Translations under genes and position numbers: made by a program
Shown here: positions 9,311 through 63,419 of the stretch, in pieces
Layout of the letters: the number at the start of each line of letters is the position of its first letter
Position numbering within the stretch: the first letter of the stretch is position 1
From: Callorhinchus milii
Taxonomy: Eukaryota
Assembly (NCBI RefSeq): GCF_018977255.1
Contig: NW_024704742.1
Location: forward strand, 71,488,001-71,552,000
Reading direction: 5' to 3'
DNA: 64,000 nt
The notes under the pieces: generated by a model
Seen by the model: only the letters and a program-made list of their open reading frames with translations
What the model was told of the DNA's origin: nothing
Database searches by the model: none

Positions 9311-9719
9311 CTGGAAAATGAAAAAAGGTATAGAAATATAGGTAGAGGGAAGACAGATAAACAAGCGAAAGGATGAGAGTATTGACTGCACAGGACTGTT
9401 GCTTGTTGTTACCAACTTTTGGAACACGAAAACAAGTTTAACTTTTGACAACAAAACCTATGCATGTATAAAATATTAACAAACCAGAAAAAAATATAAC
9501 TTCATCTGCTGCTCTTAGGTGCAGACAGAGAGCTGGCGACACAAAGAGGAGAGAAAGAGACCAATTGCAGAAAAGTGATTAAAAACAAGTGTGATATAAA
9601 ACAATATATAAAATAAGTACATATCTGAGAGGGGGATTAAAAATTGAAAGGTATGTAAGCAGAATGAAATAAAGCGGTAGCTTCTACTTTTCCATGCAGT
9701 GACAGAAATAAACAAGAGT

Positions 9720-12110
9720 CAGTGGAGAAAGAGCCAGGGAAAGAGCCAGATGATGTTTTCTCTCTCCCTCTCTCCCCCCCTCCATATTCTATTTGGAGAG
9801 GGAGAAAGAGCCAGGGGGAGAGAGAAAGAGCCAGGGGGAGAGAGAAAGAGCCAGGGGGAGAGAGAAAGAGCCAGGGGGAGAGAGAAAGAGCCAGGGGGAG
9901 AGAGAAAGAGCCAGGGGGAGAGAGAAAGAGCCAGGGGGAGAGAGAAAGAGCCAGGTGGCGAGAGGAGTGTTTTTTCCTCTCCCTTTATGTAATTATAGGG
10001 AGAGAGAGAGAAAAAAGAAAGAGCCAGAGGGAGAGAGAAAGAAAGAGCCAGAGGGAGAGAGAAAGAAAGAGCCAGAGGGAGAGAGAAAGAAAGAGCCAGA
10101 GGGAGAGAGAAAGAAAGAGCCAGAGGGAGAGAGAGAGAGGGCCAGAGGGAGGGAGAGGGAGAGAGAGCGCCAGGGAGAGGGCCAGAGGGAGGGAGAGGGC
10201 CAGAGGGAGAGAGAGGGCCAGAGGGAGAGAGACGGCCAGAGGGAGAGAGACGGCCAGAGGGAGAGAGAGAGAGACAGAGAGCCAGAGGGAGAGAGAGAGA
10301 GACGGAGCCAGAGACAGACAGAGCCAGAGACAGAGAGAGCCAGAGGGAGAGAGGGAGAGCCAGAGGGAGAGGGAGAGCCAGAGGGAGAGAGAGAGACAGA
10401 AGGAGAGAGAGAGACAGAGGGAGAGAGAGAGACAGAGGGAGAGAGAGAGACAGAGGGAGAGAGAGAGACAGAGGGAGAGACGGCCAGAGGGAGAGACGGC
10501 CAGAGGGAGAGACGGCCAGAGGGAGAGACAGAGAGCCAGAGGGAGAGAGACGGAGACAGACAGAGAGAGAGCCAGAGGAAGAGAGAGCCAGAGGGAGAGA
10601 CAGAGAGCCAGAGGGAGAGACAGAGAGCCAGAGGGAGAGACAGAGAGCCAGAGGGAGAGACAGAGAGCCAGAGGGAGAGACAGACAGCCAGAGGGAGAGC
10701 CAGACAGCCAGAGGGAGAGAGACAGAGCCAGAGGGAGAGACACAGAGCCAGAGGGAGAGACACAGAGCCAGAGACAGAGAGCCAGAGACAGAGAGCCAGA
10801 GGGAGAGAGCCAGAGGGAGAGAGCCAGAGGGAGAGAGCCAGAGGGAGAGAGCCAGAGGGAGAGAGCCAGAGGGAGAGAGCCAGAGGGAGAGAGCCAGAGG
10901 GAGAGAGAGAGACAGACAGCCAGAGAGAGAGACAGACAGCCAGAGAGAGAGACAGACAGCCAGAGGGAGAGACAGACAGCCAGAGGGAGAGAGACAGAGC
11001 CAGAGGGAGAGAGACAGAGCCAGAGGGAGAGCCAGAGGGAGAGAGACAGAGACAGAGAGAGAGACAGACAGCCAGAGGGAGAGAAAGCCAGAGGGAGAGA
11101 GAGAGAGCCAGAGGGAGAGACAGAGAGCCAGAGGGAGAGAGAGAGAGCCAGAGACAGAGAGCCAGAGGGAGAGAGCCAGAGGGAGAGAGAGAGACAGACA
11201 GCCAGAGAGAGAGACAGACAGCCAGAGGGAGAGAGAGAGAGCCAGAGGGAGAGACAGAGAGCCAGAGGGAGAGACAGAGAGCCAGAGGGAGAGAGCCAGA
11301 GGGAGAGAGACAGACAGCCAGAGAGAGAGACAGACAGCCAGAGAGAGAGACAGACAGCCAGAGGGAGAGAGAGAGAGCCAGAGGGAGAGAGACAGAGCCA
11401 GAGGGAGAGCCAGAGGGAGAGAGACAGAGACAGAGAGAGAGACAGACAGCCAGAGGGAGAGAAAGCCAGAGGGAGAGACAGAGAGCCAGAGGGAGAGAGA
11501 GAGACAGACAGCCAGAGAGAGAGACAGACAGCCAGAGGGAGAGAGAGAGAGCCAGAGGGAGAGACAGAGAGCCAGAGGGAGAGACAGAGAGCCAGAGGGA
11601 GAGACAGAGAGCCAGAGGGAGAGAGCCAGAGGGAGAGAGAGAGACAGACAGCCAGAGAGAGAGACAGACAGCCAGAGGGAGAGAGAGAGAGCCAGAGGGA
11701 GAGAGACAGAGCCAGAGGGAGAGAGACAGAGACAGAGAGAGAGACAGACAGCCAGAGGGAGAGAAAGCCAGAGGGAGAGACAGAGAGCCAGAGGGAGAGA
11801 GCCAGAGGGAGAGAGAGAGACAGACAGCCAGAGAGAGACAGACAGCCAGAGGGAGAGAGAGAGAGCCAGAGGGAGAGAGAGAGAGCCAGAGGGAGAGACA
11901 GAGGGAGAGAAACAGAGACAGAGGGAGAGAAAGCCAGAGGGAAAGAGAGAGAGCCAGAGGGAGAGCCAGAGGGAGAGAGAGACGGAGGGAGAGAGAGAGA
12001 GACGGAGGGAGAGAGAGAGAGACAGAGGGAGAGAGAGAGACAGAGGGAGAGAGAGAGACAGAGGGAGAGAGAGAGAGAGCCAGAGGGAGGCCAGAGGGGA
12101 GGCGGGGAGA
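9720..12110. repeat. 2.4-kb GA-rich compound minisatellite (GAGCCAGAGGGA core; 20-nt and 24-nt perfect sub-arrays at the left end)
   Basis: Direct reading; almost no T on the + strand from about 10000 to 12110. Confidence 0.95.
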
Positions 12111-13100
12111 GGGGGAGGCCGGGGAGAGGCCGGGGAGGGCCGGGGGAGAGGCCGGGCAGGGCCGGGGGAGAGGCCGGGCAGGGCCGGGCCTGCAGCCCCG
12201 CTCCCCGAGCGCCTGTTTATTTACGGCTTATTTTTTTACCTCAGGGCCCGCTCGGTGTGTGGGGGCGCGGAAGGCCCGGCGCGGCCCGCTCACCACGACA
12301 GCAGCAGCGGCTGCTGCTCCTCGCTCGCTCCGCTCCCCTCTCCTCTCCTCACTGACTAACGGGCTGTGTGTGGAGAAGCCTCGCGCCCAGGCCCCGCTGC
12401 TCGCGCGGCCGCCGCCACACTGCGTGAGAGAAAAGCTAAAAAGCACGCACTGCGCATGCGCCCGCGCTCTCTTTTCCCGCCCTCTCCCTCTCCCATTGGT
12501 TCACTCACTTTCCTCCACGACCTTTTCATTGGTCCGCCTAGCAGTCAATCTCAAGTGAGGGTGGGGGGAGGGGTGCCAAGCAGCGCATGCGCTCTTTGAC
12601 ACAGCGGGACAGTTAATCACGCCCACCCACTTCTCGCTTTCCTATTGGTTTATTTGCTTTACACAGCGACTTTTCATTGGCTTACTGAGCTGTAAATCTC
12701 AAATGCGGGTATGGGGAAACGGGGTGTGAAGAGCGCATGTGCGCGCGGGCTCGGCAGTGGTTAATCCCCGCTCTCGCTCTCTATTGGTTATTCCGAAACC
12801 ATCGACGCCTTCTATTGGGCTATAACCACATCCACCCAACACACCTTTCATAGTACCGCTGTCTCATTGGCGCTCAGGCACATCAGTCAAATGATGCCGA
12901 ACATCCACCGTGAAAACAAAGGACTCGTCCCGCTCCGCCCCCTCTCGCACAATTCGCGTTCTGATTGGCCGCGGGGCTAGTTTATCCCCGCCCGTTCATT
13001 GCTGATTGGCTCAGGGTGGAAGGGGCGGGGTGACAGGAATCCTATGCTTCGCAATGTCAGAGGAAGACGTCAATCAAAGAGAGTGGCAGTGGGAGGCGGA
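12100..13100 (-). promoter_or_regulatory. CpG-island promoter of a minus-strand gene divergent from DYSF
   Basis: Only CpG-dense kilobase in the window. NRF1 sites at 12451, 12583 and 12733 (variant). Nine ATTGG boxes at 12495, 12528, 12644, 12676, 12783, 12814, 12866, 12964 and 13005. GC boxes present. Confidence 0.85.
12240..12445 (-). other. Putative first (probably non-coding) exon of the minus-strand gene; 5' end approximate
   Basis: Lies downstream of the NRF1/CCAAT array on the minus strand. Candidate donors GAG|GTAAAA (exon end 12240) and GTG|GTGAGC (exon end 12294). Confidence 0.6.
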
Positions 13101-28741: not shown

Positions 28742-28829
28742 ATGCTGCGTGTGTTTGTGATCCGGGCGGACACCATCCAGACCCCTGACCAGGACATCAC
28801 CGACGCTTACTGTGCGGTAACTTTCCAAG
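28742..28829 (+). CDS. DYSF: Dysferlin coding exon 1a (canonical C2A N-terminus)
   Basis: Translates MLRVFVIRADTIQTPDQDITDAYCAVTFQ(G), resembling human DYSF [30 protein letters not shown]. 88 coding nt, donor CAAG|GTAGGT, phase 1. Confidence 0.95.
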
Positions 28830-30985: not shown

Positions 30986-32374
30986 TTGATTCTGACACTT
31001 CATTGCCCAATTTACCTCCCCCCAGACAAGGTTAGCATGTGTGTCAACCTAAATCAGGCAGCTCTGAGTCAGAAGGTTTTGGGTTCAAGCCCCTTGTCCG
31101 GACTTAGAACTCATTTAATTTATGCTGATGCTCCAGTGCAGTGCTGCATTGTTGGAGGTGTTGTCCCTTGGACGTGAGGGTAAACAGATTTCCATATGTG
31201 TCCTGTTCAGGTGGACTTTAAAGATTCTGTGCCACTAATCGAAAAGAGAAAGGAGTTTCTCCCACTGTCCTGGCTACCAATCACCAGATTAATTTTATGG
31301 CTGTTTTGGGGATGTTCCTGTACCCATATTGGCTGCTGAGTTCATCCACAAAACACACAGTCAACAACAACTTGCGCTTATGTAGCACCCCTCATGCAGA
31401 GTAGCATCCCAGAGCGTTTGACAATGGCGTAGTACAACGCCGAGCCAGGGGGAGGAGGGAGGTGACTAAGCATGGTTGAAGAGGAAGGTCTTCAGGCGCA
31501 ACCCAAAGATAGGGAAGGAGGGGACAAGGCGGAGGAATAAAGGAAAAGTGTTCCAAATTTTCGGGTTGTAATGGCTGAAAGCGCGACACTTTACAGTATA
31601 TTCTTTGATGTGAAAGGTGTTATAGCAAATACTAAAAGAAGCAAGAATTATCACTATACAAATTGTTGAATATTGAATTTTGTAATCAAAGATGTTGAGA
31701 AATTTAGTGACCACTGGACACGATGGGGAGAGAGACTGTGATTAGAGTAGAGAGCTCCAGTGGGGGAGCGAGCACCAGCAGAGACATGATGGGAAGAGAG
31801 CAGGGAATGGGATTAAAATAGGGAGCTCCAGTGGGAAAGTGAGCACCAGCACAGAATCAATGGGAGGAAATAGTTAAATAATCCTTACATTTGATGCAGA
31901 ATTTTTCACTTTAGGAGGAATTCGCAAAGCTGTTCACAAGATATACCGTAAAATGCAGTAACTGTGTATTTTGTGAGCAAACAAGACAGTCAATTTGTGC
32001 ACAGCGATGTCCCATAAACAGCTGTGAAGCAAATGACAAATTTAACAGGGGGATTGTTGGCCAGGATACTGGGAGAGAAAAACTCCCTTCTCTTTTTGAA
32101 TCATAGAATTATACAGCACAGAAAGAGGCCATTCGGCCCATTGTGTCTATACCGGCTCTTTGAAAACAGCTATCCAATTCAATCCCACTCCCCTGCGCTC
32201 TCCCCATAGCCCTGAAAACTTGTCTTCCCCAAATAATTATCTACTTCTCTCTTAAAAGTTGTTATCGAATTGGCTTCCAATACCCTCTCAGGCAATGCAT
32301 TCCAGATCCGAACAACTCACTGTGTGAAATGATTTCTCCTCACCTCCCCTCTTGTTTCTTTTTACAACTGTCTT

Positions 32375-33865
32375 ATCACTACAAAAGAGTGATAAGACAG
32401 GCTAAAAGATCGCATGAGAAGAGGTTAGCGGGTAACAGAAAGGGGAATCCTAAAATATTTTACAAGCACATAAAGGAAAAAAGATTAGTTAAAGGTAGAG
32501 TGGGGCCAATCAAAGACAATAATGGCAATCTTGTTGTGGAGGCAGAGGGCATAGCTGATGTACTGAACGAGTACATTGCATCTGTCTTCACAACGGAAAA
32601 TTTGTTAAAGGCAAATCTTGCCTAACAAATCTAATAGAATTTTTTGAAGAGGTGACTGCGAGGGTTGATGAGGGAAATGGATTTCAAAAAGGCTTTTGAC
32701 ACAGTACCACATAAGAGATTAATAAAAAAATTAGAGGCCCACGGTATTAAGGGGACAGTGGCAGTTTCGATTAAGAACTGGCTGAGTGACAGAAAGCAGA
32801 GGGTGGTGGTTAATGGGTGTTTCTCGAAATGGAAGGAGGTGTGCAGCGGTGTTCCCCAGAGATCGGTATTGGGACCACTGCTCTTTCTAATATATATTAA
32901 TGATCTGGACTTGGGCATAGAGAGCACTATTTCCAAGTTTGCAGATGATACAAAGTTAGGTAGGGTAGTAAATAGTGAAGAGGACTGTAACCAACTGCAA
33001 GCAGACATACACAGAATGGTGGAATGGGCTGACATGTGGCAGATGGATTTCAATGTGGATAAGTGTGAGGTGATACACTTAGGTAGGAAAAATGATAGGA
33101 GGCAATATAGACTTGGTAGCTCAATCTTAAGGGGGGTGAACGTACAGAGAGATCTGGGTGTTCAAGTAAGCGAATCATTAAAGGTAGCGGGGCAGGTAGA
33201 TAAGGCAGTAAAAAAGGCATTTGGTGTACTGAGCTTTATTAGTAGGGGCATAGAGTATAAGAGTAGGGAGGTTATGGTTAATCTATACAAAACACTGGTT
33301 AGGCCTCAGCTGGAGTACTGCGTCCAGTTCTGGGCACCTTACTTCAGGAAGGACATTAAGGCACTGGAAAGGGTGCAGAGGAGATTCACGAGAATGATAC
33401 CAGGAATGGGGAACCTTAGCTATGAGGACAGGCTGGAAAAGTTAGGACTTTTCCCATTAGAGCAGAGAAGGTTACGCGGGGACCTGATAGAGGTCTTCAA
33501 GATCATGAAAGGTTTCGACAGGCTAGATAAGGAAAAGCTGTTTCCGCTGGTAGGTGTGTCTGTGACCCGTGGTCACAGTCTTAAGATATCTACCAAAAGA
33601 AGCAGAGGGGAGGTTAGAAGAATTTTTTCACTCAGCGAGTTGTTGAATTTGGAATGATCTGCCTGAAAGGGGAGTGAAGTCCGATTCGATAACAGCTTTT
33701 AAGAGAGAACTGGATAGGCATCTGGGGAAGATGGGTTTACAGGGTTATGGGGAGAAAGCTGGTGATTGGGGTTAGTGAAAGTGACTTGCTCTGTTAAAGA
33801 GCCGGCACAGACTCGATGGACCGAATGGCCTCCTTCTGTGCCGTAAGATTCTATGAATCTATGAA
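32375..33865 (+). mobile_element. CR1 LINE ORF2 3' part (RT), internally deleted
   Basis: 330-aa ORF: DFKKAFDTVPH, SGVPQ.SVLGP, SKFADDTK, RPQLEYCVQFW. Tail GATTCTATGAATCTATGA. Confidence 0.95.
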
Positions 33866-35974: not shown

Positions 35975-36872
35975 ATGTGGTGAAATGCGGCAGCTAATTG
36001 CACATAGCAGTATGAACAAACAGTTATGAATTGAGTTACCAAATTTTTTTTTACACTTACTTTTTGAAGAGATTATTACCCTTGGAAAGCGGTTCAGCAA
36101 TCAACTAACAACCAGGTTTCTACTTATTGCTAGGTAAACAGAGGTATGAGGAGTAAGTGCCTCTGTTTACCCAGCCATGTGGTTTACCTTTACCACATGT
36201 ATGCAGATGACACCCAAATCTATTTCTCCTCCAGATGTGACTTCCAGTCCACTGATGTCCTGTCAGCTTGTTTGACAGATATTAAAGTCTTAATGAATGC
36301 AAATTTCCTACAGCTGAATGTCAGCAATATGGAAGCCATACTCTTTGGCTCCCGTCAACGTCTTCTTTCCTGCTCCTACCTCTCACCTCCCTCTCCCCCC
36401 GGCTTGTTGTCAGACTCCGCCACTGTGAAGTGCTCCGGGATGCCACGTGAAGGGTGCTATATAAATACAAGTTGTTGTTGTAAAGAAACTTGCCTAAGTT
36501 TTAGCCCGCACAGAAATCGAACCTAGGTCCTCTCGCTTGCAAGATAAGTGCACTAACCACTAAACTGCAGGACTCCACATGTTCTTATATTGTTATACTC
36601 CTGTGCTGAAATGCGAAAGAAAGTGTTAAAACCAGCCTTGTTCTTGGGAGGAGCCTGGGAGGAGTGGAGTTTGGCTGTCGATGACATCCCTCAGGGGGGT
36701 GGGAGCCAGGCCACTTCCCTTCGGAAAAGGCTTTGTGTCTGTCTGGCTGGCCAGACAGAAAGACACTGGGCTCCAGTCTTGATCCACCTGGACACGGCTC
36801 ACATAGATGCCCCTTTGCTGAACACCACTGGGTATATTTTTGAGCTGAAAGGAATTTGGTTCGAGTTTAAAC

Positions 36873-36966
36873 ATGCTGAGATGCCTGCTGCGCTCTGCCA
36901 AAAACCTCCCCAACGTGGAGAAGGGTGACAGGCAGAGCGACCCCCTGGTCAGTCTGACCTTCCGAG
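36873..36966 (+). CDS. DYSF: Dysferlin alternative first coding exon 1b (DYSF_v1 / C2Av1)
   Basis: AAACATG start. Translates MLRCLLRSAKNLPNVEKGDRQSDPLVSLTFR(G), resembling human v1 MLCCLLVRASNLPSAKKDRRSDPVASLTFRG. 94 nt, consensus donor CGAG|GTAAGT, phase 1, same as exon 1a. Confidence 0.92.
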
Positions 36967-38164
36967 GTAAGTGAGGGGTGGGGAAGGGAGAATGAGTTGG
37001 CGAGGAGGAAGGAGAGGAGCTTCTGGCTATAACAGGAGAGAGATGTAGGACAAATGTGACTTTACTTGCAAAAGTATTTTTATATACTGTGTATATTTTT
37101 TAAAAAGCTGTAAAATCAGTTTCTCCCGTTCCCTCTCCCCACCGCACCCCCCCCCCCCACCCGAATCTCAAAACTTGTCCTAACATAAGAAACAAGAAAG
37201 CATTTTTTTTTGTGTGTTTTGCAAGTTCAGTTTAATTTCTATGTTGCTCTGCTGAGGCGGGGTGGGTGGGTGCGTGGGGCAGTGGGTGAGAGAACATCTC
37301 ACTTTGTTCTCTCCCTTGCCTCCTTCAAGGGCTGTCTCAAAGACCCTTGTCTTCGGCCGCACCTTCGGTCCCCCTCCTACCCCTACTCTCCCTGCCCTCC
37401 ACCCCTCCTGAACCCAACCTCCAACTCAAGTCCAAATCCCTGACTGTCCAACGCCTTGGGACATTTTCTCGACGTGAAAGGTGTTGTGCAAATGTAATGT
37501 GTTGTCACAGTTGGAGAGAGTTTTTGAAAGCTCCCTAAGCTTTTTGGATGTATTGTACAACCGAGTTTGCGTAAAGTTTGCGATGATCGCTTTTCTCTGT
37601 GTGCCTTTTCATGTCTGTGTGCAAATTCTTTTTGCTTTTAAGTTGCAATAAAAAAATGCCCCCATTTCCCTTCACCAAAGTGCCCCCTCCCTCTTTTTCC
37701 CCTTCCCTCCTTCCCTGACAGTCCCTAAGCGATGCTTTTGTGGATGAAGTGTTTATTTAAGGCTCGCTCCATCCAGCCTATGAATCTCTGTCTCACAGAG
37801 AGCAGAGAGAGAGAGAGGGGGGTGTGGGGAGAGGCAGAGAGAGAGGGGGCAAGGTTAAAGCAGACTTTACTCTGCGGCAGGCAGTAACGGTTAATTTAAA
37901 CTGTTCCTGATCCTGGTCTGATTTTCTCCTCTCGCAGTGCTGAACCCGATTCAGCTTTTTGTGACCATATAAAGACGTGTTTCTCTCACCTCCATTTAAA
38001 GAGAAAGCATCGCAGATTGATTGGCGGTTCCAAAGCATGCAGAGTTGGATGTGTGAAGAGTTTTGATTTTACTGTTTTTTGTGTGTGTGTGTGTGTATGT
38101 ATATGTGTGTATGTGAGTGTATGTGCGTGTGCTTGGGAAAGCCACACCTACACATACAGGATGC

Positions 38165-38620
38165 CAGCCTGATTCAATCAGCAGCTCTCTCACCTCTGAG
38201 TTAGAAGGCTGTGGGTTCAAGCTCTTGCGGTGGGAACTTTGAGATCACAGTCCTGGCTAATGCTCCAGGGCACTGCTTGGGGAGCACTGCAGTGTTGGAG
38301 GTGCCTTCCTTCAGGTGAAATGTTAAACCAAGCTCCCCTTCTGTGTCCCATTTGTGCCCTGTTCAGGTGGACGTTAAAGATCCTACGGCACTGTTGGAAA
38401 ACAGAAGGGAGTTTCTCTCTCCTGGTGTCCTGGGCAACATCCCCCAAATAAAATCACTCATTCACTTCATGGCTGTTTGTGGGACATTGCTGCCTGCAAA
38501 TTAGCTGCTGTGTTTTGCACACAAAACACAGTCACTACACTAGACAGTAAAATTCTGCAAAGAGCATGGAGACATTTACATCATGTGACAAAGCACTGTA
38601 TCAAATGCAAGATCATTAAT
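38165..38620 (+). mobile_element. Deu-domain SINE, full length
   Basis: Head, CTGTTCAGGTGGACGTTAAAGATCC Deu motif, shared 3' tail. Confidence 0.82.
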
Positions 38621-39533
38621 TCAGTAAACACCTGATAACTCAGTACTCTGAGGGGAGAAGGGTTTAGTGACGAGTTATCAGGAGCGGCGAGTTAGGCTTA
38701 CGTATAAATACATTAATAAAGTAGTGTAGTGGTTAGAGCGCTCTTCTCACAAGCGAGAGGTCCTGGGTTTGATTCCTGAGCAGGGAGAAACCTTAGGCAA
38801 GTTTCCTTGCTCCGCACACTTCTGTTTACCTAGCAGTGTGTAGGAGCCTGGTTGTTAGTCGATGGCGGATCACTTTTCCAGGTGTAATAATCCCTTCAAA
38901 AAATAAATAATAATTTGGTCACTCAGTCCACGACTGTTTGTGGGACACTGCTGTGTGCAATTGGCTGTTATACTGTTCATCAAAATTAAGCCCAAAACTC
39001 CGATGGTCATTGATTATTCCCCACTGTGTCTTGTCAGCGTCCTCACGTTCCCATTCCAATCCCTTGTGCCTCTCCCACACACATACTGCACAGCACAGAC
39101 TGGGAATGCTGCCCCGGGAACTGGGAATGCTGCCCCAGGAACTGGGAATACTGCTTCAAAGTTGATGAATCCATAGGAAGTAAAGGGGATTTAGGGGTTT
39201 GGGAGACAGGGGAGGAAATGGGATTAAAAGATGCGGTTTCATTTGATAACCTGATGGAGCAGGCTGGGTGGTCTGAATGGCCTCTTGTCCCTGTGTTTAG
39301 GTCTATGTTTCTATATATCCTTCCCCCCACCACACAGCCTCAGGGGAACCGGGGTGGGGGCATTGGTGTCTGAGCGACTGAGACTGAGTGAGGTGGGGGT
39401 TGGGGGTCAGAGACAGAGAGAGACTAACACAGACAGACAGTCACAGGCATAGAGACAGATGCAAATAGAGACAGACACAGACAGAGAGACACAGACAGAC
39501 TGGTTCACTGACTGTCGCTCCTTTCCTCCTCAG

Positions 39534-39589
39534 GTGTAAAGAAGAAAACGAAAGTCATAAAAAACAATCTGAATCCTGTCTGGAATGAG
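39534..39589 (+). CDS. DYSF: Dysferlin exon 2
   Basis: Acceptor ctttcctcctcag|, 56 nt, (G)VKKKTKVIKNNLNPVWNE, donor GAG|GTAGGA. Confidence 0.96.
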
Positions 39590-40144
39590 GTAGGAATGTC
39601 GGAAAATATTGGTGTGAGCAAGGAAATTCCTGTGCCGGGAATCCTGTTAAGTCAGTTATATTAAAACAGAAAAGGGAACATTTAACTTAAGCTATTAAAT
39701 ATCCACAATAAAGTGTCTTATCTTGTCCAGAACAGTAGAACCTGAGGACACGGCCTGCAATTGAAGGGGGGTAAATTCAGAACAAATCTGCGAAACACTA
39801 CTTCAGTGAGCGAGTTGTAAACGTATAGAACAGGCTGCCTAGGGAGACGGTGGAAGCAGCAAATGCGATTCTTTCAAGAACAAATTAGTTAGCTTTCTGT
39901 TAGGAAATAATATTGTGGGATACAGTATATTTTTTGGGACATGACATGAGCATGTGACTGCCAGAATGGTGGAAGGTAATCTGGATGGACCTTAGTTTTC
40001 CTTCGTCTAGCAATTCTTATGTCATGTTTTTAACTTCTATTAAAAAGTGATGATAGTTTGATGGCGTTCGGTGATGGCCATTTTGAGTTTTAGATTTATT
40101 AAACAAGTTCCTCTTTCTAAACAAGCCACATTTAGGGGCATGTG

Positions 40145-40590
40145 TGCCAGCCTGGTGTAGTGGTAGCACTCTCGCACTTGAGTCAGTAAAGTTGTGGGTT
40201 CAAGCCCCACATCAGGACTTGGCGTCACATAATTTAAACAGACACTCCAATGCAGTGCTGGGATGTGTTGCATTGTCGTAGGCGCTGTCCTTCGGATGAG
40301 ACGTTAAACTGAGCTCCCCGTCTGTGCTTATCTAGGCAGACATTAAATATCCCTCGGCACAATTGGAAAAGAGAAGGGAGTTTCTCTCTCCCAGTGTCCT
40401 GGCCAACAATCTCCAAGATAAAATCGGTCACTCACTTCACGGCTGTTTGTGGGATGTTGCTGTGTGCAAATTGGTTACTGCAGCTGCTACAAAACACACA
40501 GTCACTACATTTTACAGTAAATCTTGTGAAGTGCTTTGAGATGTCCTCCTGATCTAAAAGGCACTGGACCAAATGCAAGGATTATTATGG
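40145..40590 (+). mobile_element. Deu-domain SINE, full length
   Basis: CTTCGGATGAGACGTTAAAC..GGGAGTTTCTCTCTCCCAGTGTCCTGGCCAA. Confidence 0.85.
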
Positions 40591-40640
40591 CAGCGTACGA
40601 CTGAGTCTTAATCCTAAGGGATTTTTTCTTCCTTTTGCAG

Positions 40641-40732
40641 GGATTCGAATGGGATTTAAAGGGAGTTCCTCTGGATGGGAATACTGAGCTCCACGTGGTA
40701 GTGAAGGATCATGAAAAAATTAGCAGGAACAG
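40641..40732 (+). CDS. DYSF: Dysferlin exon 3
   Basis: Acceptor ttccttttgcag|, 92 nt, [30 protein letters not shown](R), donor CAG|GTAAGG. Confidence 0.96.
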
Positions 40733-41292
40733 GTAAGGACTGCGTTCAGTTTTAGGCACCGCACCTCAAGAAAGATACAAAAACGTGCATTTGTAAAGCA
40801 CTCTTCACTCGCAGGGTCTCGGAATGCTGAACAGTGGCGGACCACTCTACCAGTTAGTGCTTTGGTCTGCAGGGTGATGGGTCTGTCCTTCTCAAGTCCT
40901 GCTGATGAGCCAGGCTGGGCTGTACTGTCAACAGCAGTGCCCTGGAATACTGCAGACTTGCCTGGCTCAGGAGCTGGACTGTCAGAGCTGGCTCAATTCC
41001 CACATTCCATTGCCAAACATGTCACCTTGGAGCCAGCTCAGCTCAGAGGAGACCACGCGGTATAGAGAGTAGAGCATGAGAAAGTAGATAGTGTAGTGGG
41101 AGCTGGTGATTTAATATAATAATAAATTTGGTCACTCAATCCACGACTGTTTGTGGGCTGTGTGCAATTGGCTGCTGTGTTTCGCCCACAAAATATACAC
41201 GCAATTCATTTTACTGTATATTCTGTGAAGCACTTTTTGAGACGTCTCGCAGACGTGATACAGCGCTATATCAAATGCAAAGATTATTATTT

Positions 41293-45999: not shown

Positions 46000-48900
46000 T
46001 GAAGGCAATGGAACAATGTGTACCCATGTGAAGCAAAGGTACCAAGCTTAAGTCCACTCCTGCCTGGTTGGAATGGGGCTACAAAGCAAATCATAAAGAG
46101 GGGAAAAAAAACATTTAAGGCCATGAAGGAAAATGGCATGAAAATAAGTTGGACGCAATACCAGAAGGCATGCCAGGACTGCAAAAGAAGGCATCAAAAT
46201 GGCAAAAAAAAAAAAGCTCTGAATTGAACATGGCAAGAGATGTGAAAGATAACAACAAGATGTTTTTCAGTTTCATTAAGAGTAGAAGAAAAACAAACAA
46301 TGGAATACGGCCACTAAAAGTGGGTTCAGGAGGCAACATGACAAATAATGCTGCACAATAATGATAAATAAGCTTTTTGCATTAGTCTTTACCAAGGAGG
46401 AGACAGGTAACCTATCTGATTTGGAAAGAGAACTCAAGAATGTCGCAGAGGAAAGTTGTGACACTATTCATATCACTACCAGCACGATTGCCAAATAGGT
46501 GTATAAACTTAAGGTAAATAAATCTTAGGGCCCAGATAAGTTGCATCTGAGGATCCTTAAGGAACTAAGGGAGGAAGTTGCAGAAACGCTGGCCCAAATC
46601 TTTCAAAAAGCACTGAATACTGGGGAGGTGCCGGGGACTGGAGAAAGGCAGATGTTACTTCAATTTTTAAGAAAGGTAACAAAGTGACCCAGCAAACTAC
46701 AGACCAGTACGTTTGACGTCCATTGTGGGTAAAATTATGGAGCATTCTGGACAGAAATAAAATCGTAAATGATAGCCAATATGGGTTCATGAAACAAAGG
46801 TCTTGCCAATCTAATTTACTGTTTTTCTTTGACTGTGTGACAAGGGAGCTTGATAAGGGTAAGGCTGTGGATGTTGTATATCTGGATTTCAGTAAGGCCT
46901 TTCATACAGTTCCTCTTAAGAGGCTGGTACTGAAAGTAAAAAAAATTGGAATCAATGGAGCTATTTTACAATGGATACACATTTGGTTGACCGGAAGAAC
47001 CCCACCCCACGCCCCTACTCCTCTGCTCCTCTGGCTGCTTCCCCTCCTTTGAGCATCTCACCCTCTTCCATCCATCTCTCCCACTGAAAATCCTTCTGGT
47101 CTACCACCCCCCTAAGCCCCCTGGCTCCTTCCGCTCTGACATCTTTCCTCTCTTCCTTGTCCCTCTGCTCCGAACACCTGCTCATAATGGGCGATTTCAA
47201 CCTCCACCTAAACTCCCCTTGCACTACTTCTTCTGACTTCATTGCCCTACTCTTCTCCCTAAACCTCACCCTTCACATTAATTCACCGACCCACAACCGT
47301 GGCCATGCTCTTGACCTCGTCATCACCCACGACCTTGACATTTTCGACCTGAGCATAGTGGACAAGGCCATCCCGGACCACTTCCTCATCTCCTTCTCCT
47401 CTCATCCCTCTCTCCTCCACCAAGCCCTCAACCATACTCTACCGCCCGTGGAAAAGGCTACCCCCTCACAAAGGCCCTCACAACCTCAAATATCCTATCC
47501 CTCTGGCCTTCCACCCGCAGAGATCCTGAAGCAGCCGTCCAGCTGCTCCATGATCGCTTCTCCTCCACCTTCACCTCTCTCGTCCCCCTGAAATCCAGGA
47601 CCATCTCCAAGCCCACCCGATTCCCCTGGTATAACAATCATCTCCACCACCTAAAAACCTAAACCCGGCTGCTAGAGCGCAGATGGCAGAAAACTGGCCT
47701 GACAGTTCACCACTAACTGTGTCTTGAGCATCTCCACAGCTATCACCATTCTTTGACACGTGCAAAAAAGTCCTACTCCAACATCATCTTGGAGGCAAAA
47801 AACAGTCCCAAAGTCCTTTTTTCCACCACCCACTACCTCCTCCGTGCCTCCTCTCAGGTCTCCTCAATCTTCACATCCAATGCCAAATGTGAGGAGGTCA
47901 TGGACTTCTTTTCAAACAAAATACATAACATCCGCCAGGCAGCCTCATCCTCCTGCCTCTTGTCACCCACCACTACTCCTTCTCCGTCCCCTTCACCCTC
48001 CCCATCATCAGCTCCTACCACGACCCCCAGCTTACATTCCTTCCTCTCTATCTCTCCTTCCTCACTCTCACCCACCATTACTTCAATGAAACCCAGCAAC
48101 TGCTGCCTCAACCCCCTCCCCACCAACTTGCTGGTCACCCAGCTCCCCTCCTCTGCCCACTACTGGCTGATGTCATCAACTAGTCCCTCTCCTCTGGATC
48201 GATCCCTGCCCCCCTCAAAACTGCTGTCATCACCCCCCTCCTCAAGAAACCTTCCCTCAAACCCCAGCCATTACTGCCCTATCTCTAATCTGCCCTTCCT
48301 CGCAAAAGTTCTAGAACGTATTGTTGCCAATCAACTCCGCGCTCACCTCTCCTCCCACTCCCTCTTCAAACCCCTCCAGTCTGGTTTCCGCCCACAGTAC
48401 AGAGACTGCACTTGTGAAAGTCACAAACAACATCCTCTCTATCAGTGACCAGGGCTCTCTCTGCCTCCTTGTCCTCCTGGACAAAGTCGATCACGCCATC
48501 CTCCTCCACCGCCTTTCCTCCGTCATCCACCTCAGTGGGACCGCACTCGCCTGGTTCGAGTCCTACCTCACGAACCGCCAGCAGTAAGCTGCACAAACGG
48601 CTTCTCCTCCCGCTCTCACCCGGTTACCTGCGGGTACTCCAAGGATCCATCCTTGGCCTCCTCCTCTTTCTGATCTATATGCTCCCTCTTGGGGATGTCA
48701 TCAGCAGACCTAGGGTACACTTCCACATGTATGTGGATGACACCCAACTCTTTTTCCACCTCACTTTGCGACCCCCAGTCCCCTGATGTTCTGTCAGCCT
48801 GCCTGTCAAACATCAGGAGCTGGATGAGCTCGAATTTCCTTCAGTTAAATGTTGACAAGACACAAGCCATACTCTTTGGCTCTCGTCAACGTCTAAAATC

Positions 48901-49940
48901 GCATGGTTCTCACCTCCTCCACCTACCCGACTTCCCCCTAAAACTCTCTGAACCTGAACGGAACCCAAGTGTCAGATTTGACCCCCAATTATCCTTCCTT
49001 CCCCACATCCGGTCCCTTACCAGCACCGCTTTCTTCCACCTCCAACGCATCGCCCGTCTCTGCCAATACCTCACTCCAAAAGCCGCTGAAACCCTGGTCC
49101 ATGCCTTTGTCACCTCTTGGCTGGACTATTCTAATGCCTTCTTCGCTGGTAACCCCTCCACTACAATTCATAAAATTCAGGTCATTCAAAACTCTGCCAC
49201 CAGCATTCTTACCCGCACCAAACTCTGCTCCCCGATTTCCCCAGTCCTTGCCAGATTGCACTGGCTGCCTGTCCCAGAGAGGATCGACTTCAGGATCTTC
49301 ACCCTTGTCTTCAAATCCCTCCACTCCTCTGCACCCCCCACCTCTCTGACCTCTCTCCTCAAACGAGTGCCCGTTGCCTTTGTTCCTTTGGGTCTGGCCT
49401 CCTCCTTGTCTCCAGAATCCTCCGCTCCACCCTCAGTGACCGTGCCTTCAGCCACTACGCCCCAAGGCTCTGGAACTCCCTTCCCCACTCCCTTCGCCTT
49501 GTCCCCTCTCTTCCTATTTTCAGGTCTCGGCTGAAGACCTTTCTTTTCAACCCCAGCTTTGGTCACCTTCCTCGCCATTCCCCTGGCTCGGCCCCGAGAT
49601 CCGCTCTGAGACACCGTCCGCTGTGGAGGGCGCTATATAAATCCAAGTTGTTGTTGTTACAGGGAATGTCATCAGACTAGGAAAATGTTACCAGTGGAGT
49701 TCCACAAGGGTCTGTTTTGGGATCTCTTTTGTTTAATACTTTTATAAATGATCTGGAACTAGGAGTCGCAAGCACAGTGCCTAAGTTTGCAGATGACACA
49801 AGCTAATGAAGGTAATAGATTGTGAAGCTGAAAAAGATAGGTTACAGGAGGATTTGAACTTACCTGGAAATTGGGCAGATCGGTAGCGAATTAAATTCAA
49901 AGTGGAGAAATGTAAAGTACTTCACATGGGGACAAAAATC
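46000..49940 (+). mobile_element. CR1 LINE ORF2 fragment split by a nested L2
   Basis: VDVVYLDFSKAF at 46865-46900. The RT resumes at ~49660 ([17 protein letters not shown]). Confidence 0.88.
47000..49658 (+). mobile_element. Long L2 LINE (APE endonuclease end + RT, internally deleted, frameshifted)
   Basis: IMGDFNLH, PTHNRGHALDLV, PISNLPFLAKVLE, MYVDDTQ and LHWLP motifs; (TTG)n tail. Confidence 0.93.
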
Positions 49941-56982: not shown

Positions 56983-57088
56983 GTTTCTGGGGGAAGTGAA
57001 CACCAACTTGAAAGATGTCCTGAACTCTCCCAACTTGGCAGCCAATTACAACCTGACTTTACTGGACCCCAAGAAACAAAGCACTGGG
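56983..57088 (+). CDS. DYSF: Dysferlin exon 4
   Basis: Acceptor ttttcaccacag|, 106 nt, (R)FLGEVNTNLKDVLNSPNLAANYNLTLLDPKKQSTG, donor GGG|GTAAGT. Confidence 0.95.
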
Positions 57089-62074: not shown

Positions 62075-62192
62075 GCCACCATCATTCTGCAGGTCTCATA
62101 CCTGCCCCCTCCGGGAGCTGCTCCACTGTACCCCTCCCCAGCCCTGAACGAGGCGACATCAGTCACAACTACCGACACTGACACGCCAACAG
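62075..62192 (+). CDS. DYSF: Dysferlin exon 5
   Basis: Acceptor ttttccttctccag|, 118 nt, ATIILQVSYLPPPGAAPLYPSPALNEATSVTTTDTDTPT, donor CAG|GTACGG. Phase 1 matches exon 6. Confidence 0.92.
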
Positions 62193-63219: not shown

Positions 63220-63419
63220 ACACAGGGGGTGAGGCTGAGGGTGAAGAGGACACAGAAGACTCTGTGGACCCAGGAGAGGAGGACAAGACTCCGACCCGGA
63301 CACCAGGGGCTGAGCCCCCCGCTGCCCCGAAGCTCCAGCCACCGAGCTCCGGCAAGGCTCTGAGGAAACGCAAACACTCAGCCCGGCCTCTCCTTCCCAA
63401 CAAACCCCAGGACTTCCAG
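63220..63419 (+). CDS. DYSF: Dysferlin exon 6 (C2A-C2B linker)
   Basis: Acceptor tctccgcag|, 200 nt, (D)TGGEAEGEEDTEDS...LRKRKHSARPLLPNKPQDFQ, donor CAG|GTCAGA. DTGGE..EDTED and KPQDFQ match dysferlin. Confidence 0.93.

Follow-up and report, generated by a model that had tools for sequence, protein, structure and literature searches.

According to the available portion of PMC8650162, human dysferlin transcripts arise from two promoters, DYSF and DYSF_v1, and passages of PMC2923515 report muscle and blood expression of the form with the alternate exon 1. The first exon of DYSF_v1 (PDB 4IQH; GenBank DQ267935 as cited in PMC8650162) is an alternative first exon that replaces N-terminal C2A. The resulting domain, C2Av1, does not bind via calcium according to excerpts of PMC3898210, and excerpts of PMC9333456 describe its calcium ligands as salt-bridged by basic residues. 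The literature passages at hand treat the human variant as a minor isoform. In the open literature, dysferlin, shark and C2A came together in PMC2923515 only, whose available passages mention the alternate exon for human alone. We found no statement in the open literature on the conservation of both first exons in fishes; subscription papers lay outside the search, and such a statement may be in print there.

Sharks and rays have comparable RefSeq isoforms. In Heptranchias (XP_067835493/XP_067835553) both peptides, of 32 and 30 residues, are likewise found on one shared downstream protein, and the same two-isoform pattern occurs in Carcharodon (XP_041041967/XP_041041976) and Hypanus (XP_059821779/XP_059821780). 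The two-first-exon arrangement has been described in humans and is present in existing shark and bony-fish annotations; it is not a new kind of system. For the window, by which we mean the whole 64-kb stretch of DNA analyzed here, the best overall explanation, which we hold with high confidence, is that it contains an orthologue of DYSF_v1 exon 1, a second first exon (1b) that is spliced downstream, likely has its own promoter, and would exchange a loop of the C2A domain.

The gene is dysferlin rather than myoferlin or FER1L5, as exons 2 to 6 match dysferlins in order and exon 1a matches dysferlin structures only. Exon 1b lies between exons 1a and 2, with its own ATG and the same phase as exon 1a. 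The first-pass annotation had described an ATG-initiated exon of 94 nt followed by a GTAAGT donor in the phase of exon 1a, and our coordinates, phase and translation all agree with that description. The frame and donor of exon 1a are also intact in the window, and exons 2 to 6 read in frame and stop-free from either first exon (220 and 222 codons).

Table 1. Features of the dysferlin locus, in window coordinates.
Feature	Coordinates	Strand	Remarks
Dysferlin exon 1a, coding part	28742..28829	+	88 nt, phase 1, donor GTAGGT; predicted from sequence
Probable 5' UTR of exon 1b	36679..36872	+	From X1 record 1; 5' limit is the contig end, not a mapped start
Dysferlin exon 1b, coding part	36873..36966	+	94 nt (31 codons plus 1), phase 1, ATG start at 36873
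Exon 1b splice donor	36967..36972	+	GTAAGT, read from sequence
Exon 2, shared	39534..39589	+	56 nt; AG/GT ends, TCAG acceptor; joined to exon 3 in X2 record 13
Exon 3	40641..40732	+	92 nt; C2A loop 3; contig pieces in X1 and X2
Exon 4	56983..57088	+	106 nt; AG/GT ends
Exon 5	62075..62192	+	118 nt; covers the last part of C2A and the beginning of the linker; 3' end set by frame and donor
Exon 6	63220..63419	+	200 nt; C2A-C2B linker; AG/GT ends

The best PDB match of the exon 1b peptide was human C2Av1 (4IQH, E 1.6e-5), with 20 of 31 residues identical as counted from the alignment, followed by myoferlin at E 0.58 to 1. The equivalence to the human C2Av1 exon that had been claimed for it is borne out by this top match. 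Exon 1a matched human C2A best (4IHB, E 8.2e-7) and hit canonical dysferlin structures only; there were no cross-hits between the two at E≤10. Exon 1b was 74% identical to the N-terminus of sturgeon dysferlin (tblastn E 1.5e-9) and 65–80% identical to annotated vertebrate first exons. Gnathostome 1a and 1b peptides formed two clades (98/89 and 98/90, respectively), with one of the window's exons in each and its 1b peptide grouped with mammalian v1 peptides. Judged by these comparisons, human DYSF_v1 exon 1 has its cartilaginous-fish orthologue in exon 1b. Like human C2Av1, exon 1b has Arg three residues ahead of the conserved Asp-Pro. It differs in having 31 rather than 30 codons, in keeping Glu16, and in having Gln at the position of the second human Arg.

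We collected dysferlins in searches seeded with exon 1b. These retrieved 394 proteins, of which 13 without a readable first exon were dropped, leaving 381 (110 of type 1a and 271 of type 1b). Among these readable proteins, the site three residues before the conserved Asp was Asp in all 52 distinct 1a peptides and Arg or Lys in 85 of 87 distinct 1b peptides; it was Gly in 7 of 8 outgroup ferlins. The window has Asp18 in exon 1a and Arg20 in exon 1b at this site. We take Asp18 to be a calcium ligand in human C2A. The net charge of the loop was always acidic in 1a (-1 to -4) and near neutral in 1b (-1 to +2). Exon 1a encodes the canonical strand 1, loop 1 and strand 2 of C2A, all three of which would be swapped by the choice of first exon. 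With exon 1a the domain would have an acidic loop 1 (Asp18, Asp21), and with exon 1b, where Arg20 takes the place of Asp18, it is predicted to be Ca2+-insensitive like human C2Av1. Throughout the jawed vertebrates, promoter choice probably exchanges a loop that binds Ca2+ for one that is largely blocked, and the pattern of Asp in 1a, Arg or Lys in 1b and Gly in the outgroups suggests that the calcium switch itself may be gnathostome-wide.

The human biochemistry may not transfer fully to fish 1b, because its loop is less basic (net -1, as in the window, versus +2 in placental forms) and retains a Glu that placental forms lack. The exon could be real while the fish C2A-1b domain still binds calcium, with Ca2+ independence being a placental refinement. 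Consistent with this, Glu16 was present in 61 of 61 distinct 32-residue non-placental 1b forms, which are near neutral, and placental 1b (P0113, P0337, P0328, P0112, P0278; PDB 4IQH) is one residue shorter, has no Glu, has a second Arg, and exceeds the 1b of marsupials and non-mammals in basicity. In addition, the C2A domain of myoferlin was solved with cations according to passages of PMC9333456, though it has no Asp at the site. Against it stands the Arg or Lys at the Asp18-equivalent site in nearly every 1b form, including spiny-rayed forms missing most of the loop. We regard a placental origin of Ca2+ independence as possible, if on balance unlikely, and favor the older calcium switch.

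Cod and spiny-rayed fishes have a 1b peptide of 25 residues, in 19 distinct forms (e.g. P0227, P0225, P0247, P0264, P0275, P0318), in which calcium loop 1 is seven residues short; in seven of these forms the conserved Asp is also absent. The C2A domain of otoferlin is also described as lacking loop 1 in the available text of PMC9333456.

We also examined how widely the two exons are distributed. Over exons 2 to 6 the window grouped with nine sharks and rays apart from 15 bony vertebrates (100/100; midpoint root, no outgroup), so the host is a cartilaginous fish, as had been supposed. The window's branch was long (0.51) and its placement among sharks weakly supported, and its nearest protein was that of Heptranchias, at no more than 68% identity. 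Named proteins came from the best 120 of 441 and of 546 matches, among which there was no lamprey, hagfish, chimaera or FER1L5 sequence. Among the members listed, up to 15 per cluster, both first exons were annotated within one species in at least 8 of 18 cartilaginous fishes (6 identified by script, Mustelus and Heterodontus by inspection), with only 1b in 7 others and only 1a in 3. Both were also found in 11 of 18 bony vertebrates examined, including bichirs, sturgeon, paddlefish, gar, zebrafish, Xenopus and newt. In sharks and fishes these isoforms come from gene prediction. Since both types are annotated in cartilaginous and bony fishes alike and form separate clades, the comparison supports an exon pair that predates the split between the two groups. 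An origin before the gnathostome split had been proposed on condition that the host was a cartilaginous fish. It holds independently of this host, and the window adds no new date, because public shark and ray gene models already imply it.

Some features of individual sequences were also recorded. The window's exon 1a clustered with bony-vertebrate 1a (94/88) and not with that of sharks and rays, in which the loop seems to be derived; the window's 1a loop is Thr-Pro-Asp, as in bony vertebrates, in contrast to Ile-Ile-Glu in the shark and ray isoforms. Loop 3 of C2A (40715–40732) reads Lys-Ile-Ser in the window versus Thr-Met-Gly in the sharks and rays examined. One stored protein, P0348, has exons 1a and 1b strung into a single chain and is probably a mis-joined prediction.

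The first-pass annotation had further suggested that 1b lies closer to myoferlin exon 1 than 1a does and may be the ancestral form. We compared the two exons with 8 ferlin N-termini (amphioxus, Limulus, shrimp, Nematostella, two unnamed ferlins and two myoferlins). Most of the 150 representatives considered were unrelated multi-C2 proteins, and P0401 and P0439, in which the first stretch is missing, were excluded. The invertebrate type-I ferlins (amphioxus C3XZR5, Limulus XP_022250784, Halocaridina KAK7086143, Nematostella EDO36862) have the same strand-loop-strand stretch, with one N-terminus seen per protein. Exon 1b outscored 1a in 18 of 18 species pairs against each myoferlin and amphioxus, and in 17 of 18 against both Limulus and Nematostella, the pairs being related and not independent. 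It did so in 9 of 18 pairs against the shrimp ferlin, and in 8 and 2 of 18 against the two unnamed ferlins. The claim about myoferlin is thus right by score. The N-terminus of myoferlin C2A (PDB 6EEL, 2DMH) has the Asp-Pro motif and the Ser-Ala...Pro start of the loop in common with 1b (E 0.58), but in length (30 residues) and in the valines of strand 1 it is exon 1a that matches myoferlin exon 1, which had been overlooked; at the loop site myoferlin has Gly where 1a has Asp and 1b has Arg.

Residue by residue, the two exons form a mosaic. Exon 1b agrees with the outgroups in the loop and in having a Pro next to the conserved Asp; the Pro follows this Asp in all 8 outgroups, 86 of 87 1b peptides and none of 52 1a peptides. 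Exon 1a has kept the outgroup state in the strands, at positions that are derived in 1b (Val in 7 of 8 outgroups, Val in 6, Tyr in 4 and Gln in 6). A 1b that is the ancestral first exon, with 1a a later derived addition, would account for the higher scores of 1b against five of the eight outgroups, for its gapless alignment to amphioxus C3XZR5, and for the Leu-Pro-Asn, Glu and Asp-Pro loop residues it shares with most of them. It fits poorly with the strand residues kept by 1a, with the three outgroups that show no preference for 1b, and with the similar stem lengths of the two exon clades (0.47 and 0.57), and two copies are in any case equally old once duplicated. We find this order of events rather doubtful, and ancestral status of the variant is not established, as both exons carry derived states; in its simple form the idea was rejected on the residue mosaic.

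A tree of ferlin first exons, which had been proposed as a check, recovered two exon clades and placed 1b with myoferlin rather than with 1a (97/80 in the best tree, and 85/85 without two long rows). Taken at face value, this placement would mean that the exon duplication predates the duplication that separated dysferlin and myoferlin, with myoferlin retaining the 1b type and losing 1a. The tree was built on 32 columns with two myoferlin first exons, its long-branch joins were flagged by the tool, and neither a clade of 1a with 1b (p-AU 0.295, 0.265, 0.301) nor one of 1a with myoferlin (0.32, 0.30) was rejected. With so few columns and alternatives at AU p of about 0.3, the tree does not settle the order of events. 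We know of no second first exon in myoferlin, which also counts against a duplication before the gene split, and we consider such an early duplication unlikely.

A fair reading of the sequences is that a first exon was duplicated and that both copies may have retained ancestral residues, with slightly more of them in 1b. A single first exon was probably duplicated in tandem before cartilaginous and bony fishes diverged, after which each copy would have retained a different portion of the ancestral sequence. More speculatively, a promoter-driven calcium switch may be as old as jawed vertebrates and depend on a single loop site that moved from an ancestral Gly to Asp in 1a and to Arg or Lys in 1b, the pair may predate the dysferlin-myoferlin duplication, and spiny-rayed fishes may later have removed most of loop 1 from 1b. 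We put this fuller history forward only tentatively.

To look for transcripts, we compared positions 36450–40800 with contigs from six runs of one organism, none of which is recorded as RNA. Two of the runs, X1 and X2, come from one study, and that they represent RNA is our guess. X1 record 1 (1280 nt) matched the exon 1b region (record 995–1280 to 36679–36964) and exon 3 (record 843–938 to 40639–40734) with 0 mismatches in either piece, and the pieces are separated by 56 letters, the length of exon 2. The join was deduced from this spacing, as 15 of 720 joints were displayed, the 1b junction not among them, and the 56 letters were unprinted; the depth in the exon 2 bin (32.9) agrees with it. 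In X2, one contig stops at 36964 and another (record 13) has exon 2 joined to exon 3. The X1 and X2 pieces stop at 36964, two letters before the end of the exon, where the letters fit both sides. X3 contigs ran unspliced through the 1b donor and through exons 2 and 3, X8 left the exons without cover, and in X1 two unique intron bins had no cover; we give neither gap weight on its own. The evidence that exon 1b is spliced to exons 2 and 3, as had been claimed, is good but indirect, coming from the one study whose X1 contig bridges 1b and exon 3 over a gap the length of exon 2. At 36886, an X2 contig of depth 6.2 has G for T, a difference that would turn Leu5 of exon 1b into Arg and may be an error or an allele.

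The X1 contig reaches 194 nt upstream of the 1b ATG and then ends at 36679, as a first exon would, although contig ends cannot locate a transcription start. Near exon 1b there are GC boxes, no TATA within 200 nt, and a CpG ratio of 0.31. Exon 1b likely has its own promoter inside intron 1. If transcription begins near 36679, as we infer, transcripts would carry either 1a or 1b. The two exons had been called mutually exclusive, and alternative first exons used by promoter choice is the better description, as both open with an initiator ATG. Internal mutually exclusive cassette exons were rejected, given the two initiator ATGs and the genomic sequence running 194 nt upstream in the X1 contig. 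The probable 5' UTR contains two upstream ATGs, whose frames (36681–36782 and 36807–36821, read by eye) close before the main ATG.

We give practically no credence to exon 1b being a silent relic or a chance open frame in intron 1: the pattern of an ATG, 20 to 44 open codons and a phase-1 GTRAG donor occurs 15 times per strand in the 64-kb window, so that it is homology and not the pattern that excludes chance, and a chance frame was ruled out by that homology to annotated first exons together with the intact frame and the X1 contig that skips introns. Exon 1b is the sole candidate of this pattern within intron 1.

Elsewhere in the window, a CpG-rich patch at 12150–12870 (CpG ratio 0.84, GC 0.63) has repeated CCAAT-like and GCGCATGCG motifs and adjoins a 2.5-kb GA-rich tandem array (about 9700–12100). 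From its composition it looks like a promoter, perhaps for a neighboring gene on the minus strand. ORF translations in introns 1 and 3 (32164–33770 and 46000–49700) contain decayed reverse-transcriptase fragments, which we presume to be LINE-like.

Measured against what was already annotated, the additions made here are modest, namely the Asp/Arg site that is reciprocal between the two exons and their mosaic ancestry. Both exons have been retained from cartilaginous fishes to mammals, with invariant signature residues, which argues that both are under selection. The Asp versus Arg/Lys site and the placental and spiny-rayed loop variants provide named handles on the role of C2Av1 in membrane repair, and both first-exon forms are annotated in zebrafish.
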